Translations under genes and position numbers: made by a program
Shown here: one piece after another, positions 18,232 through 34,210 of the stretch
Layout of the letters: each line of letters starts with the position of its first letter
How positions within the stretch are numbered: the stretch's first letter is position 1
Notes under the pieces: generated by a model
Database searches by the model: none
Told to the model about the DNA's origin: nothing
Seen by the model: the letters and a program-made list of their open reading frames with translations, nothing else
Source: an uncultured bacterium
Lineage (GTDB): Bacteria > Fidelibacterota > Marinisomatia > Marinisomatales > UBA1611
Length of the DNA stretch: 64,000 nucleotides
Direction: 5' to 3'
NCBI GenBank assembly: GCA_965660855.1
Contig: CBFIBM010000004.1
Coordinates: 1-64,000 of the forward strand

Positions 18232-18753
18232 TTGAAAAAGGTACTTTTTATCTTTTTTTTAGCAGCTATATTACCTAGCTGTAGCGCTTCTATATTTTTA
18301 AAGAAAAGACCTGCTACTGAGAACCTTAAGTTGGCCTTAATTAAAGATTCATATAGGTTTTTAAAAATTGAACAACAAAAAGGTTTTGGTCCAATTATTT
18401 CTTATAAAATTAAATATCCATTTAGACCTTTTTCTATTGGTAGTAAAAAACTCGTTTTAAAATTAAATGAATATGAAAACATTGTCGATCAACACATAGA
18501 TTATAAAAAAAAATATGATATTAAGAAATCTAAGCAACCCCTTATTTTTTCACGTTTAGCTTTTAGGGATAAGAATAAGGAAACTATTAAACAAAAAAAT
18601 ATTGATATACAATTGATAAAAAGTTTAACAAAAGATTATGAAAAATGGGGTCCAGAATGGGAAGAAAAGGCTCAATCTTACGCTGAAAATATTTCTACGA
18701 AAGAAATAAAAAGTATACGAAGTGAAATAAGAAGAATATATGGTAAACTATAA
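18232..18753 (+). CDS. Hypothetical lipoprotein
   Basis: Signal peptide with LPSC lipobox-like motif. Confidence 0.6.
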   Translation: MKKVLFIFFLAAILPSCSASIFLKKRPATENLKLALIKDSYRFLKIEQQKGFGPIISYKIKYPFRPFSIGSKKLVLKLNEYENIVDQHIDYKKKYDIKKSKQPLIFSRLAFRDKNKETIKQKNIDIQLIKSLTKDYEKWGPEWEEKAQSYAENISTKEIKSIRSEIRRIYGKL

Positions 18754-18846
18754 TTTCTTTTCTATTGATTATTATAATCACTTTGACATATATCTTAGTT
18801 TATAATTATTTTTAATGAGTGGAAATTTTCCGTTAACATAATTCAG

Positions 18847-18948
18847 AAGGGGGTGATCAGTTGTCTAATTCAAGTAATTTGCTGACCTCCAAAAAATCAG
18901 CAAAATAAAATCCACATTGCTGCCATCGTGAGGTCAGCTTTTATAAAT
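18847..18948 (+). ncRNA. Candidate structured small RNA / 15-aa sORF with extended anti-SD complement
   Basis: AAGGGGGTGATC at 18847-18858, TTG sORF 18861-18908, GCTGACCTC/GAGGTCAGC stem, own terminator. Confidence 0.5.
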
Positions 18949-18980
18949 AAAAAGCGCATTCTCTAAAGAGTGCGCTTTTT
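18949..18980. terminator. Bidirectional intrinsic terminator
   Basis: AAAAAGCGCATTCT-CTAA-AGAGTGCGCTTTTT. Confidence 0.88.
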
Positions 18981-19794
18981 ATTTATAAATCAATATTCCA
19001 ATGTATATAATAGTTAAAAATATTGCTAAGTATCCTGGAAATTTGAGTTTTCTTTCAAAACAAGGTCTTGATGCTGCTAAATGAATAAATATAAAAATTA
19101 ATCCAGGTATATAAGTTAAAGTTTCTACATCATTGAAAGATCTTCTAAAAGGAAGAAAAAAATAAGAGAAGCAAAGCCATATAATAAAACAATTCATGAA
19201 CCATCCAAAAAAATTTAATAGCGGTACTCCATAATAGGGACCCTTATTATTCCACTCCCATCTTTTTTCATCAACTGCTATTGGATCTAGTACTGAATCT
19301 ACTAAAACCATCATAATACACGGTATAATAAATAGTTTTATATTATTATTTATTATTTGATCCAAACTATAAGACCCTAAAAAACAAAATAAATTATAAC
19401 TCATGTAAGTTAACATTACCCAAGCAATAGGTATGACAATTGGGATACCCAATAGGCTAGGTCCAGGTGTTAATTCTAAATTATATTTGTATTTTCCCCC
19501 GAAAATTATACCCGTTTTTTCTCCTACTATCTCCATTAACATACTAATAATAAATGTGATCAAAATAAATATAAAGATATTCGGAATGCCCCAGAAAATT
19601 GAGCCATGATAGACTAAAAATAAGAATAAAGTTAATACTTGAAAAACTCTAATCTTTTCAGCTTTTTGATAATTAGGATCTAAACCAAAAAAAATTTTCT
19701 TTTTATATAAAGAAAAAGAGCCCGTCCTGACCAATCTATATAAGAATGGGATTAAAATAATAAAAAGAAATATAATTATATATAGAATATTCAA
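18979..19794 (-). CDS. Carotenoid biosynthesis (CruF/LyeJ-like hydratase family) membrane protein
   Basis: E.VG.KTG.IFG.Y.Y, GIP..IP.AW, D..LDP.AV....W.W, YYGVP..NF.GW. Confidence 0.85.
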   Translation of the reverse strand: MNILYIIIFLFIILIPFLYRLVRTGSFSLYKKKIFFGLDPNYQKAEKIRVFQVLTLFLFLVYHGSIFWGIPNIFIFILITFIISMLMEIVGEKTGIIFGGKYKYNLELTPGPSLLGIPIVIPIAWVMLTYMSYNLFCFLGSYSLDQIINNNIKLFIIPCIMMVLVDSVLDPIAVDEKRWEWNNKGPYYGVPLLNFFGWFMNCFIIWLCFSYFFLPFRRSFNDVETLTYIPGLIFIFIHLAASRPCFERKLKFPGYLAIFLTIIYIGILIYK

Positions 19795-22281: not shown

Positions 22282-22354
22282 GGGCCCATAGCTCAACGGT
22301 TAGAGCACCAGACTCATAATCTGTTGGTTCGGGGTTCGAATCCCTGTGGGCCCA
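22282..22354 (+). tRNA. tRNA with CAT anticodon, most likely tRNA-Ile2 (lysidine); CCA not encoded
   Basis: GGGCCCA/TGGGCCC acceptor stem, CTCATAA loop, GTTCGAAT; lacks initiator features, Ile-like acceptor stem. Confidence 0.88.
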
Positions 22355-22494: not shown

Positions 22495-23346
22495 ATGAAA
22501 ATCATTTTAGTAAATTTAATATTTAGTAGTTTTTTATTTTCTATTAGTGGAAAATTAATATTTAATGACGGAACAACTATTGAAGGTAAAATAAATACAA
22601 TTACTAAAGATGCAGTAAACTTGGTCCCTGACGGTCTTACTTTTCCTGAAAATATCCAGGTAGAAAATATTGATACTTTAAAACTTGATGATGGTAACAT
22701 CTTGATAGAAAACAGTATTGTAGTTTATCTTTACCAAAACGGTGAATTTCTTGAGCCAAGTAATATTAAAGATGAAATAATCTATGAAGATGATTATGAA
22801 CTTGAATATGTATTGGTTCCAAATTGGAGTGTTAATTTGTATACAGGCCATCCAATATATGGAGCTTCGTCTTTCAAAGAATATGATGACTGGTCTGTCC
22901 TAAACGGTTTCTCCGTAGGATCTCCATACGGAGTATTTGCAGGAGATTTTTTTATGAATGTCATTTTTGAATTTGCTCATTATACTTTTAAGCAAAAAAA
23001 TGATCCTACGGGCTTAGCGCAGAGTTTTGGTGGATCAGCTTTGCAATTAGGAGTAAGCCCAGGTTTTTTTTTAGGATCTGCTAGCATTAGCTTGACTGCC
23101 TGTTCAGGTGCATATCAAACAGAAAAGCAAGAATGGAAAACTGGTTTTATCATAGGGGGTAGCGTTGACATACCCCTAGGATCTTTTCTTATAGATCGAT
23201 ATGGCGATAAGGATATTATAGAAAGCTTTGAAGAATACCTCGAGTCTGTGGAATTAAGAATTACGAGTAGAAGCAATTTAATCCAGAAATCGGATGGTGC
23301 GACTGGTTGGCTAGATGCCGGTATATCAATCGGTTATGAATTTTAA
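22495..23346 (+). CDS. Putative outer-membrane beta-barrel protein
   Basis: Signal peptide; amphipathic strands; C-terminal beta-signal GISIGYEF. Confidence 0.7.
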   Translation: MKIILVNLIFSSFLFSISGKLIFNDGTTIEGKINTITKDAVNLVPDGLTFPENIQVENIDTLKLDDGNILIENSIVVYLYQNGEFLEPSNIKDEIIYEDDYELEYVLVPNWSVNLYTGHPIYGASSFKEYDDWSVLNGFSVGSPYGVFAGDFFMNVIFEFAHYTFKQKNDPTGLAQSFGGSALQLGVSPGFFLGSASISLTACSGAYQTEKQEWKTGFIIGGSVDIPLGSFLIDRYGDKDIIESFEEYLESVELRITSRSNLIQKSDGATGWLDAGISIGYEF

Positions 23347-23366
23347 ATTAAAAAACACAATATTTT

Positions 23367-24287
23367 TTGAATTATAAAAAAATATTTTTACTATTTTTAT
23401 TGAGTTATTCTATATCTCAAAATGAAGCATATCTGGGTGAGGTCTCATTCAATTATAGTGGAACCGTAAATAATTACTTCTCCTCAATTTCAGGGGATTC
23501 CACCCTGACAAGTATTGCCTTTAATCAAGATAATGGAGATTCTTCTTTTTTTTTATTTGCAGCAATTACCCAGCAAGAAACTAATGAATTTGATTTATTT
23601 TTAAGTGTTTTAAGGGATACAACTTTTCCAGTTGAATCACGATCATGGCAAGTCCCAGGCGAAGGAGATGAAGAGAATCCATTAAGTCTAGAAACAATTT
23701 TAGTTCTTATGCCTGGATTAGATTCATCTTTTGTTTTAAACTTTTTGGAGACTTTTTCTGATACATCTGAAAATCAAAATTCAGATGATTTATTTAATGA
23801 AATTTTTACAACCTTAAGTGATCAGCTGTATTTAGGTCTGCAAGGAAATCTAGAACTCGAAGTTTTAAATGATAGTTCTATCGTTGGAAATTTTAATTCT
23901 ATCCTATTTAAACCTGCATTTCATATACCACCTCATTTAGTTACAATAAACGATGGTGAATTCTCTTTTAATAAAGCTCTGACCACTCCTATATTAAAAT
24001 TAGAAGACTCAAAAATAAGTGTAAATGATTATAAACTATTCAATACTTATCCAAACCCTTTCAATCCAATCATTCAATTCCAATTTGAATCAGATTTAAA
24101 ATCTGATATTTCATTAGATATTTACGATATCAAAGGTCGAAAAATAAAAACAATTTATGAAGGCACAGTTGAACCTGGAGAACAAATTTTTGAATGGAAT
24201 GCAAAAAACTTTTCAAGTGGTATATATTTATCAGTTTTGAGAAATAAATCATATACTAAAACAAAAAAAATAACATTAAATAAATAA
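23367..24287 (+). CDS. Secreted acidic protein with T9SS type A / FlgD-Ig C-terminal sorting domain
   Basis: YPNPFNP...IYDIKGRKI...W.A....SGIY.......KKITL. Confidence 0.88.
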   Translation: MNYKKIFLLFLLSYSISQNEAYLGEVSFNYSGTVNNYFSSISGDSTLTSIAFNQDNGDSSFFLFAAITQQETNEFDLFLSVLRDTTFPVESRSWQVPGEGDEENPLSLETILVLMPGLDSSFVLNFLETFSDTSENQNSDDLFNEIFTTLSDQLYLGLQGNLELEVLNDSSIVGNFNSILFKPAFHIPPHLVTINDGEFSFNKALTTPILKLEDSKISVNDYKLFNTYPNPFNPIIQFQFESDLKSDISLDIYDIKGRKIKTIYEGTVEPGEQIFEWNAKNFSSGIYLSVLRNKSYTKTKKITLNK

Positions 24288-32475: not shown

Positions 32476-34210
32476 CTAACGCTTTTTGTAATTTAGTTAG
32501 TTCCTTAAGCTCAAAATCAGAATCTTGACCTTTTAATTCTTTTTCTCTAATTTGAATTCTAATATTTTTAATCTGTTGTTTGATAGGTTCTGATTTTAAG
32601 ATTTTTAAACAGTCACTTACAATTTCTTCAGTTAAAATATTTTTTTCTGCTTCAAAAAGTATTTTTGCAATAAAGTTTCTTTCATTAATATTATTGAATT
32701 GCTCTATTATACTAGAAGATTTTACTTCTAAATTTTCATTTAATAAATACCGAGCTAATTTTTTTAACGATTTATTTGTAAATAAATTAATTGAAACATT
32801 AGCTATAGCATAATCTCTTATATTTTTATCTTCATTAGAAAGTAATTTAATTAATTCAAGCTGAGCTTTTTCTATTTTTGTAGTAAAAAGCTCTTCTTCA
32901 TGAGTTGAGTCATCTTTTCCAGCTTGATATGTCGTTCTTATATTCTGACTCTTCAAAGTCTGCATTAAATCTTTGGTGTCAACTTGCATTCTTTCCGAAA
33001 AAATTCGAATCATCTCATTTTTAATTATGATATCCTCAATACTGCTGATCTCTTTTACAAATTCAATTATGTAATTACGCCGGTCAGAGCCCTGAAGAGA
33101 AAGAGCTTGATTATGTTCTAAATGAAAATCCAAATATGATTTAGGAGAATTAATTTTACTTATTACATTTTCTTTTTTTTCATTTGTAATCCAATCATCA
33201 GGATCCATTCCCTTCGGAGGGCGAACAATTAGTGGTTCAATTCCTGATCGAAATAAAACCCAACCAGTCTTAATTGTAGCATTTGCTCCCGCATTATCCC
33301 CATCAAAAAGTAATATGACTTTCTCCGCAAATCTATTAATGATAGCCCCGTGTCTTTCTGTAAAAGAAGTTCCCGAGACAGCGATTACATTATGAACTGA
33401 ATTTTGATATAATTTAAGGTAATCCATATACCCCTCAACAAGGATTGCAAAACCTTTTTTCCGAATTGAATCACGAGAAGTATTTAATCCATAAAAAACA
33501 TCACTCTTTCTATAAAGTGGCGTTTCGGGAGAGTTTAAATATTTTGCTATATCATCAACATCATATATCCGTCCACCAAATGCAATTACCTTTCCCGATG
33601 AGTTAAAAATCGGAAACATAACTCTTGACCTAAATCGATCAAATATTCCTTTATCAGAGTTGCTAAATAATCCTGATTGAACTATTTGTGATTTAGAATA
33701 ACCTTTACCTTTACATTTCTTTACTAACTGATCCCAACTATTTATTGCAAAGCCTATTTTAAATTGAGTAATAATGTCCTCGGTTAAACCTCTGCTTTTT
33801 AAATACGATAAAACTTTTATATTTTTTGAAGAAAATAAATTTTTCTGATAAAGGCTTGTTGCAATTTCATGTAGTTCATATAAAGAAGAAAATAATTCAT
33901 TAGGGCCTTTAGATTCTTCAATCTGGATTGGAATATTATATCTTTCTGCAAGAATCTTTATTGATTCAGGGAATGGAACTTTTTGATACTCCATTACAAA
34001 TGAGAAAACATTTCCGCCAACACCACAACCAAAACAGTGATATATTTGTTTAGATGGAGCAACACTAAAAGAAGCTGTTTTTTCTCCATGGAATGGGCAT
34101 AAACCAAAATAATTTGAGCCTCTCTGTTTTAAATCTACAAATTGAGATACTACATCTAAGATATCTGCTGAATCTCTTACTCTTTCAATAATATCTTGAG
34201 ATATTTTCAC
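32465..34210 (-). CDS. dnaG: DNA primase
   Basis: CPFH..KTASF, CFGCG zinc finger; KYLNSPET, VEGYMD, FDGDNAG, DPDD. Confidence 0.97.
   Translation of the reverse strand: MKISQDIIERVRDSADILDVVSQFVDLKQRGSNYFGLCPFHGEKTASFSVAPSKQIYHCFGCGVGGNVFSFVMEYQKVPFPESIKILAERYNIPIQIEESKGPNELFSSLYELHEIATSLYQKNLFSSKNIKVLSYLKSRGLTEDIITQFKIGFAINSWDQLVKKCKGKGYSKSQIVQSGLFSNSDKGIFDRFRSRVMFPIFNSSGKVIAFGGRIYDVDDIAKYLNSPETPLYRKSDVFYGLNTSRDSIRKKGFAILVEGYMDYLKLYQNSVHNVIAVSGTSFTERHGAIINRFAEKVILLFDGDNAGANATIKTGWVLFRSGIEPLIVRPPKGMDPDDWITNEKKENVISKINSPKSYLDFHLEHNQALSLQGSDRRNYIIEFVKEISSIEDIIIKNEMIRIFSERMQVDTKDLMQTLKSQNIRTTYQAGKDDSTHEEELFTTKIEKAQLELIKLLSNEDKNIRDYAIANVSINLFTNKSLKKLARYLLNENLEVKSSSIIEQFNNINERNFIAKILFEAEKNILTEEIVSDCLKILKSEPIKQQIKNIRIQIREKELKGQDSDFELKELTKLQKALDEI

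Follow-up and report, generated by a model that had tools for sequence, protein, structure and literature searches.

The window, that is, the whole 64,000-nt stretch of DNA analysed here, lies on contig C4 of a Marinimicrobia (SAR406) genome of the order Marinisomatales (assembly of 2.09 Mb, 84% complete, 31% G+C), and a 225-nt gap between two convergent genes is the site of the small RNA unit under study. The upstream neighbour is a lipoprotein-like open reading frame of 173 residues without a Pfam match (18232-18753, + strand), and the convergent neighbour downstream belongs to the Caroten_synth family (18979-19794, - strand). Between them runs a small transcription unit of about 160 nt (18819-18980, + strand) with its own promoter and its own terminator, both of which are conserved. 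A consensus scan places a sigma-70-type promoter at 18783-18812 (+ strand), composed of a -35 box TTGACA (18783-18788), an 18-nt spacer and a -10 box TATTTT (18807-18812), with 10 of 12 consensus positions matched and a predicted transcription start near 18819. Relatives present TTGACT or TTTGNT together with a TAAAAT- or TAAGAT-like box, at a constant spacing to a conserved GTGG/GTGTG block. The first-pass annotation had instead pointed to a TATAAT at 18801; these letters are indeed present (18801-18806, + strand), but they stand only 12 nt from the TTGACA at 18783, and the relatives support the combination of TTGACA at 18783-18788 and TATTTT at 18807-18812 as the promoter.

At the other end of the unit, folding and a minus-strand self-match reveal an intrinsic terminator hairpin flanked by an A-tract and a T-tract (18944-18985, usable on both strands). 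Because this element touches the stop codon of the convergent gene at 18979-19794, it can act on both strands, and the earlier remark that it had no long reading frame to serve is corrected by its also closing that gene. In relatives, each clade carries a different G+C-rich hairpin followed by a T-run at the same place. The neighbouring genes are constant within the clade of the window and different in other clades, the promoter and the terminator are always there, and the element occurs as one copy per genome. Given the fixed distance of the promoter, the clade-specific terminators and the varying neighbours, we conclude that 18819-18980 forms a small transcription unit that does not depend on its neighbours and has a promoter and a terminator to itself; the stand-alone small RNA initially proposed is thus backed by comparative evidence. 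Its 5' leader (18819-18845, + strand) opens with GUGGA (18819-18823), able to pair with UCCAC (18911-18915) just past the stop codon of a short reading frame to form helix P0, and DNA conservation between genera starts at 18818. This helix takes the form GUGGA:UCCAC in one clade and GUGUGU:ACACAC in two others, a co-change that is suggestive between clades and not significant in a permutation test (p about 0.23).

The leader is followed by an extended Shine-Dalgarno (SD) block, GAAGGGGGTGATC (18846-18860, + strand), recognized by its anti-SD duplex energy and its conservation, which combines 13 pairs to the 16S rRNA tail, including two G-U pairs, with an invariant AG. The tail used for this comparison, GGATCACCTCCTTTTC, is that of a genome of the same genus, the 16S gene being absent from the window's own assembly. 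The core of the block, AAGGGGGTGATC, lies at 18847-18858 (+ strand), and one more pair, of the G-U type, is possible through the G just before it at 18846. The 12-nt anti-SD complement noticed in the first pass is therefore correctly placed at 18847-18858, and it marks the strongest predicted 16S pairing in the 2.09-Mb genome: among 13,795 candidate sites on both genome strands, 18846-18858 forms the top duplex at -22.7 kcal/mol, with the runner-up at -20.6 kcal/mol. The value also passes the -13 kcal/mol mark of the Bacteroidota-type rpsU start region. The AG at 18859-18860 contributes two more pairs (15 nt in total) only if one rRNA base is bulged, and the block ends 2 nt before the TTG start codon. 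Taken by itself, the 13-mer is weak evidence in one window, since 0.44 matches with one mismatch are expected per window by chance, and its significance comes from conservation. The six positions upstream of GGTGATC (AAAGGR), which were fixed by none of the search patterns, contain purines only in 98 of 98 distinct relatives, without a single pyrimidine in 588 cells. Every change from AAAGGA among these 98 distinct copies is from A to G and faces a U in the rRNA tail. One position further upstream, a purine is still found in 81 of 98 copies, and beyond it conservation is lost. This coincidence of the conservation boundary with the end of the 16S tail represents the best evidence for selection on rRNA pairing.

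The mini-ORF that follows (18861-18908, + strand) starts with TTG, comprises 15 codons (MSNSSNLLTSKKSAK) and ends with TAA at 18906-18908, as first described; its frame, length and stop position are kept in relatives. In all 49 distinct genome copies, TTG opens a 15-codon frame whose stop, 46 times TAA and three times TAG, occupies one and the same position. Among the matches listed from metagenomes, 110 of 120 copies possess 15 codons (99 TAA, 8 TAG, 3 TGA), six possess 16 and four are cut by contig ends, so that all 116 complete copies among these matches have 15 or 16 codons. The pattern used for the DNA searches fixed the TTG, whereas the covariance-model search left the start codon free, and here 31 of 31 hits retain TTG and 15 codons, save for genome G154 with 16. 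The sole in-frame insertion is found in G154 and amounts to exactly 3 nt, located between segments X and Y and yielding the 16th codon. In 50 of 50 copies, the +1 and +2 frames reach a stop within 0-7 codons, 1-nt indels occur right after the stop codon, and a variant from an RNA library exchanges the stop TAA for TGA.

The encoded peptides are of a hydrophilic kind with many Ser, Asn and Lys residues; they are alike within clades and different between them, and the likeness within clades may reflect only low divergence. An ordinary micropeptide gene, in which activity resides in the 15-residue peptide and the strong SD serves only its synthesis, would account for the conserved frame, length and stop, and has a parallel in the alpha-proteobacterial peptides RreB and RreR, described as conserved in their clades (PMC5711450). 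This explanation is considered unlikely, as the codon differences comprise 174 non-synonymous against 20 synonymous changes, and the substitutions outside X are even over the codon positions (80/106/104), without a third-position excess. The only residues kept are M-S and L-T/A-S, with LTS encoded by the X helix arm, and the DNA identity between genera exceeds what a hydrophilic peptide of 15 residues would need. The constant end of the frame, combined with evenly spread and mostly non-synonymous changes, argues that reading to a fixed end is selected and the peptide is not. Selection would then concern the act and the length of a putative translation rather than its product.

The RNA is predicted to fold far better than expected from its composition. 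For the 176 nt at 18810-18985, the folding energy is -50.1 kcal/mol, compared with a mean of -31.0 kcal/mol for shuffled sequences (z = -5.3), and none of 200 shuffles is as good. This fold contains the 9-bp helix P1 (GCUGACCUC/GAGGUCAGC), which encloses helix P2 (CAGCAA/UUGCUG), followed by the long terminator hairpin. Four segments take part in the predicted pairings. Segment X, GCTGACCTCC (18881-18890, + strand; core GCTGACCTC at 18881-18889), is an anti-SD look-alike within codons 7-10 of the mini-ORF (GCUGACCUCC) that pairs with Z in fold I, with the SD in fold III, or with Y. Segment Y, TCAGCAAA (18897-18904, + strand), pairs either with X, in a hairpin with CCUCC in its loop, or with X' as helix P2. 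Segment X', TTGCTGCC (18917-18924, + strand), is a partial copy of X (GYUGRY in relatives) and pairs with Y or Z. Finally, segment Z, GAGGTCAGC (18930-18938, + strand; core GGAGGUCAGC), is an SD look-alike that provides the 3' arm of P1, a consensus helix according to RNAalifold. The two mutually exclusive stems of the first-pass annotation, one of which uses TTTGCTGA (18878-18885, + strand) as its 5' arm, have their arms at the coordinates given here, and both can be folded in relatives.

Among the matches listed, X is identical in 119 of 125 distinct copies, four others reading GCTGGCCTCC and two ACTGACCTCC. Helix P1 has 9-10 of 10 positions paired in 123 of these 125 distinct copies; changes affect one side (Z) and comprise 23 wobble cells and 10 breaking cells. 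As no pair is changed on both sides among the 125 copies, the two arms might be conserved for other reasons. The pairing of X with the SD consists of GGAGGU/ACCUCC plus CAG/CUG. Constrained folding of 50 copies favours the SD-free fold I in 45 and the SD-closed fold III in five, with a median gap of 3.9 kcal/mol between the two folds and 16 of 50 copies within 3 kcal/mol. Once X is removed, X' and Z form a hairpin after the stop codon in most relatives (-5 to -13 kcal/mol), and a hairpin between X and Y (-2 to -12 kcal/mol), its loop containing or adjoining CCUCC, is likewise available in most relatives. The variants of X retain every X pairing via G-U, namely in G154 (A to G) and in G087 (C to U). 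In G154, the A-to-G change in X is accompanied by a U-to-C change in Y, which gives a compensated X:Y pair (A-U to G-C), and the same G wobbles with Z and the SD. These models suggest a layout of an SD, an anti-SD look-alike, a decoy SD and a fourth strand able to lock the decoy.

The resemblance of X to rRNA allows for a different explanation, in which the RNA acts as a decoy for the binding proteins of the 16S 3' tail (bS21, bS18, bS6, Era, YbeY). X (UGACCUCC) differs from the tail (AUCACCUCC) at few positions, and Era and platform proteins are reported to contact this stretch of the tail (PMC13000453). Such a role is regarded as very unlikely: it rests on a resemblance and leaves the SD, the start codon and the stop codon unexplained. 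The four segments and the leader-sized frame also recall attenuators of the ermC/trpL type, where a short frame covers segment 1 of four alternately pairing segments and the last one, as here, contains an SD-like GGAGG. An RNA that belongs to an adjacent gene in cis, whether as leader, as attenuator or as 3' UTR, would further agree with sub-threshold cmscan scores for Thr_leader (27.1 bits, threshold 55) and L10_leader (26.7 bits, threshold 44). In contrast to attenuators, however, the RNA has no regulated gene downstream on the same strand, the neighbour being convergent in the window and variable elsewhere. A constitutive terminator comes next in every clade, and no conserved start is present past Z, which makes this interpretation extremely improbable.

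The same architecture brings to mind type I toxin mRNAs, in which the SD is sequestered by an internal CU-rich stretch and a long-range helix joins the 5' and 3' parts. SD sequestration and a long-range helix would be common to both, but the peptide encoded here is short, hydrophilic and variable and not of the hydrophobic membrane type. For the alternative membership in Acido-Lenti-1, a likeness suggested in the first pass, no covariance-model match was obtained: at E <= 10, the list of 35 matches for 18650-19100 lacks the family, and six relatives scanned at E <= 0.01 do not show it either. Both ideas, a type I toxin mRNA and an Acido-Lenti-1 member, are accordingly given next to no credence. 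The comparison with Rfam by cmscan that had been proposed for the locus returns no family at its threshold for the small RNA. At gathering thresholds, the window yields two tRNA genes only (2-74, - strand; 22282-22354, + strand), and the best permissive match of the small RNA is SSRC34_2 with 35.5 bits against a threshold of 48, a score driven by the stem and the terminator. Elsewhere in the window, positions 22495-24287 contain two adjacent open reading frames of 283 and 306 residues, the second of which has an end that we take to resemble a type IX secretion sorting domain.

The element is known from at least about 125 distinct relatives in four families of one order, all of which keep the SD block, the TTG, the frame of 15 (or 16) codons and X. 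Besides the window's genome, 36 members of its family were searched with blastn and 24 gave a match, as did both genomes (2/2) of a second family; identity between genera was 74-93%, and the tally includes a few short and unrelated sequences as its weakest matches. A strict pattern search of species representatives returned 50 loci, one of which (L022, labelled KSB1) is a chance match and one of which is cut by a contig end. The covariance model R1 gives strong matches in 17 of 27 genomes of family f1, four of four of f10, eight of 10 of f16 and three genomes of f9; three further matches at 20-24 bits are regarded as noise. Nothing was found with R1 in other families of the order, and 121 genomes from 16 other families of the phylum contain no match. 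A metagenome scan adds at least 120 loci, at least 114 of them distinct. Locus L049 is a 4.7-kb contig assigned to a MAG of Winogradskyella sp.; it contains a typical element of the f16-family clade and is probably misbinned. A mobile or viral origin was rejected on the grounds of zero matches in the viral_contigs collection, no match among plasmids and a single copy in the window's genome. In genera and families without the RNA, a search for analogous sites with a 12-nt pattern yielded more than 150 matches listed; the 14 extra sites inspected among them all proved to be 16S ends or to lie inside other sequence, e.g. coding sequence.

Two studies contribute three RNA libraries whose contigs match the window at 95-99% identity and cover 18791-18940 and 18827-18957. 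They stop short of the flanking genes and their ends differ (18940 and 18957), the uncovered parts not being evidence of absence; one of them continues into adapter sequence. One contig starts 28 nt upstream of the predicted start, and such libraries can contain DNA. The sequence is thus present in RNA libraries, and this presence is all that the contigs show.

Although the first-pass annotation ranked the locus as its top candidate for an undescribed system, RNAs of this kind are already in print as the small mRNAs rreB and rreR of alpha-proteobacteria, which combine an SD of 16-17 nt with 14-18 codons. According to the original report, both are separate mRNAs of about 165 nt that have a promoter and a terminator of their own, 16-17 nt complementary to the 16S end, a GTG start and frames of 14-18 codons; strong association with 30S subunits and a stability that depends on the start codon are further traits of the group (Hahn et al., RNA Biol 2017; PMC5711450). 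Within this source, rreB is described as a 165-nt RNA whose 17-nt SD precedes a frame of 14 codons starting with GTG; it co-sediments with 30S subunits, is translated weakly and holds its SD partly inside a conserved hairpin (PMC5711450). The gene context of rre is conserved within a family only, and the function is stated there to be unknown (PMC5711450). Overproduction of rreB left growth of Bradyrhizobium unaffected in the experiments reported (PMC5711450), an outcome that speaks against a simple ribosome sponge. The literature searched, all outside subscription journals, contained neither a follow-up on rre function nor a paper on such an RNA in Marinimicrobia/SAR406. The SAR406 RNA shares with rre the stand-alone unit of about 160-165 nt, the dedicated promoter and terminator, the extended 16S complement, the non-AUG start, an SD partly engaged in a conserved hairpin and a gene context that is kept within a family only, and its frame of 15-16 codons falls inside the rre range of 14-18. 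It differs in having 13 contiguous complementary nucleotides (15 with a bulge) that end 2 nt before the start codon, whereas those of rre (16-17 nt) extend to the first base of GTG; measured against the rre definition of at least 16 uninterrupted nucleotides of 16S complement, it falls short with 13. Further differences are TTG instead of GTG, a peptide that varies between clades, the internal anti-SD look-alike and decoy SD, and an SD-poor host. The SAR406 RNA also belongs to another phylum without a detectable sequence relationship to rre, and 30S binding, shown for rreB, is here predicted from sequence.

The Rfam family CC2171 (RF01867) has a start region of the same type. Its consensus opens with GAAAGGAGGUGAUCCAGUGUCU, in which xUG UCU follows the same extended SD, and its end is likewise a terminator. 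The middle parts fail to align and the score stays under the gathering score: one relative (L024, 386-533) reaches 28.7 bits against 75, and the window has no match at E <= 10. The CC2171 consensus begins with 17 nt that complement the 16S tail and continues with GUG, so the family looks like the Caulobacter representative of rre, though it is filed in Rfam as an sRNA.

The host genome uses few SD sites. GGAGG occurs within 20 nt upstream of the first ATG in 0.6% of 1,446 long reading frames, the same rate as at 1,378 internal control ATGs, and AGGA precedes 12% of long-ORF starts compared with 4% of control ATGs. Among the few genes with an extended SD is rpsU, encoding bS21, on contig C10 (locus L072, 323-568, minus strand): its start region, TTTGGAGGTGATTTAAGTG, forms a duplex of -16.8 kcal/mol with the anti-SD, and GGAGGTGAT stands ahead of its GTG start codon. 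Across the order, GGAGG or GGGGG is found 5-12 nt upstream of rpsU in 55 of 58 genomes (L072-L130). An extended rpsU SD (GGAGGTGA/T) with a mostly GTG start, present in 55 of 58 genomes of the order (exceptions G047, G051 and G054), is a hallmark described for Bacteroidota and Chlorobia and is observed here in Marinimicrobia. In the family of the window (L073-L094), a conserved ACCACAAAC motif is located about 20 nt upstream of the rpsU SD, and its ACCAC could pair with GUGGU at the rpsU start codon, leaving the SD in the loop. One of the very few further well-placed strong SDs in the genome precedes a 194-residue reading frame (MSFWWEKLW...) near 33925 on the minus strand of contig C14, with GAAGGGGGTGACCAA before the ATG and a duplex of -17.2 kcal/mol. 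In addition, the spacer right after the 16S 3' end in two loci (L132, 3049-3075, and L131) reads AAGGAG, an anti-SD complement that might allow for pairing within precursor rRNA.

For Bacteroidota, three studies report that the 13-bp SD:anti-SD helix of rpsU cannot coexist with bound bS21 and that such an SD is typically confined to rpsU among the genes of Flavobacteriales (McNutt 2023, PMC9976891; Naeem 2026, PMC13000453; Arpin 2026, PMC13000457). The SAR406 RNA resembles this start region in its SD:anti-SD helix, within a range of 9-13 bp, its SD-avoiding lineage and its non-AUG start. It differs in that its SD precedes a 15-codon frame on a transcript of its own, with rpsU residing on contig C10. 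The bS21 protein of the window's genome matches its E. coli counterpart (E = 8e-13) better than the Flavobacterium johnsoniae chain 7jil_z (E = 8e-7), the latter over residues 3-52 only, so that the alignment stops short of the C-terminal region whose contacts hide the anti-SD in Bacteroidia. A link between bS21 and the small RNA may be drawn by analogy. Genera g2 (0/4) and g12 (0/5) as well as most families of the order have no copy of the RNA and keep the rpsU SD, which argues that the RNA is not obligatory in an rpsU circuit.

These data also bear on the possibility that the SAR406 RNA is a base-pairing sRNA with a mini-ORF of secondary importance, whose CCUCC in the X:Y loop blocks the SDs of the few SD-bearing mRNAs, above all rpsU. 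The X:Y hairpin with CCUCC in or beside its loop, available in most relatives, is consistent with such a mode of action, and X is predicted to form a duplex of about -14 kcal/mol with the rpsU start region in 20 of 20 genomes tested. The two partners do not co-vary, the mean energy being -14.49 kcal/mol for pairs from the same genome and -14.48 kcal/mol across genomes (permutation fraction 0.49), and on these grounds rpsU targeting by the X loop is rejected for the 20 genomes. The 13-nt SD, its purine-only flank matching the rRNA tail and the conserved stop would moreover be left unexplained, and Hfq is not found in the 84%-complete genome, making a base-pairing sRNA a rather improbable solution. 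A sponge for a CsrA-type protein was discarded as well, with neither CsrA nor Hfq found in this genome.

On balance, the SAR406 RNA is somewhat more plausibly than otherwise an rre-type mini-mRNA, one that would dock on ribosomes and control access to its own SD, a reading for which we infer 30S binding, translation and a conformational flip. Its 13-nt SD (15 nt with one rRNA bulge) would pair with essentially the whole free 16S 3' tail, which leads to the proposal that the RNA docks very tightly on 30S subunits with an accessible tail. The weak TTG and the 15-codon frame would then be translated, with the act and the length of reading being selected. X, within codons 7-10, would mimic the anti-SD and close the ribosome-binding site by pairing with the RNA's own SD, and the site would be open when X is paired instead with the downstream Z. 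Capture of Z by X' may follow when a ribosome reads through X and Y, flipping the RNA towards its closed form and rendering translation self-limiting. Small subunits with a free anti-SD tail may be the ones that read such an mRNA. As SDs are few in the lineage and rpsU has the only other well-placed extended SD, the RNA would most likely be read by, or compete for, the same exposed-tail subunits. In a more specific and doubtful version, the SAR406 RNA could be a second dedicated client of, or a competitor for, subunits that lack bS21 or are immature, and thereby serve as a sensor of free tails that works as a one-shot switch. Docking on the 13-bp SD and reading through X would hand the decoy Z to X', and the freed X would close the real SD.

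So far, rre-type small mRNAs have been described in alpha-proteobacteria only. With no sequence relationship detectable, the SAR406 RNA and rre appear to have arisen independently, and the recurrence of this architecture in an uncultured marine phylum that is unrelated to the alpha-proteobacteria and abundant worldwide speaks for selection on the architecture as such. The combination of an SD-avoiding genome with a bS21 gene that carries the other strong SD offers a concrete link between rre RNAs and ribosomes differing in the freedom of their tail. At least about 125 natural variants provide a mutational map of the purine-only SD flank, the fixed frame length and the three-way helix exchange. 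If the reading as a free-tail sensor is true, the 'specialised ribosome' circuit of Bacteroidota would extend to another phylum and include a non-protein-coding component, and the rre small mRNAs would gain a function.
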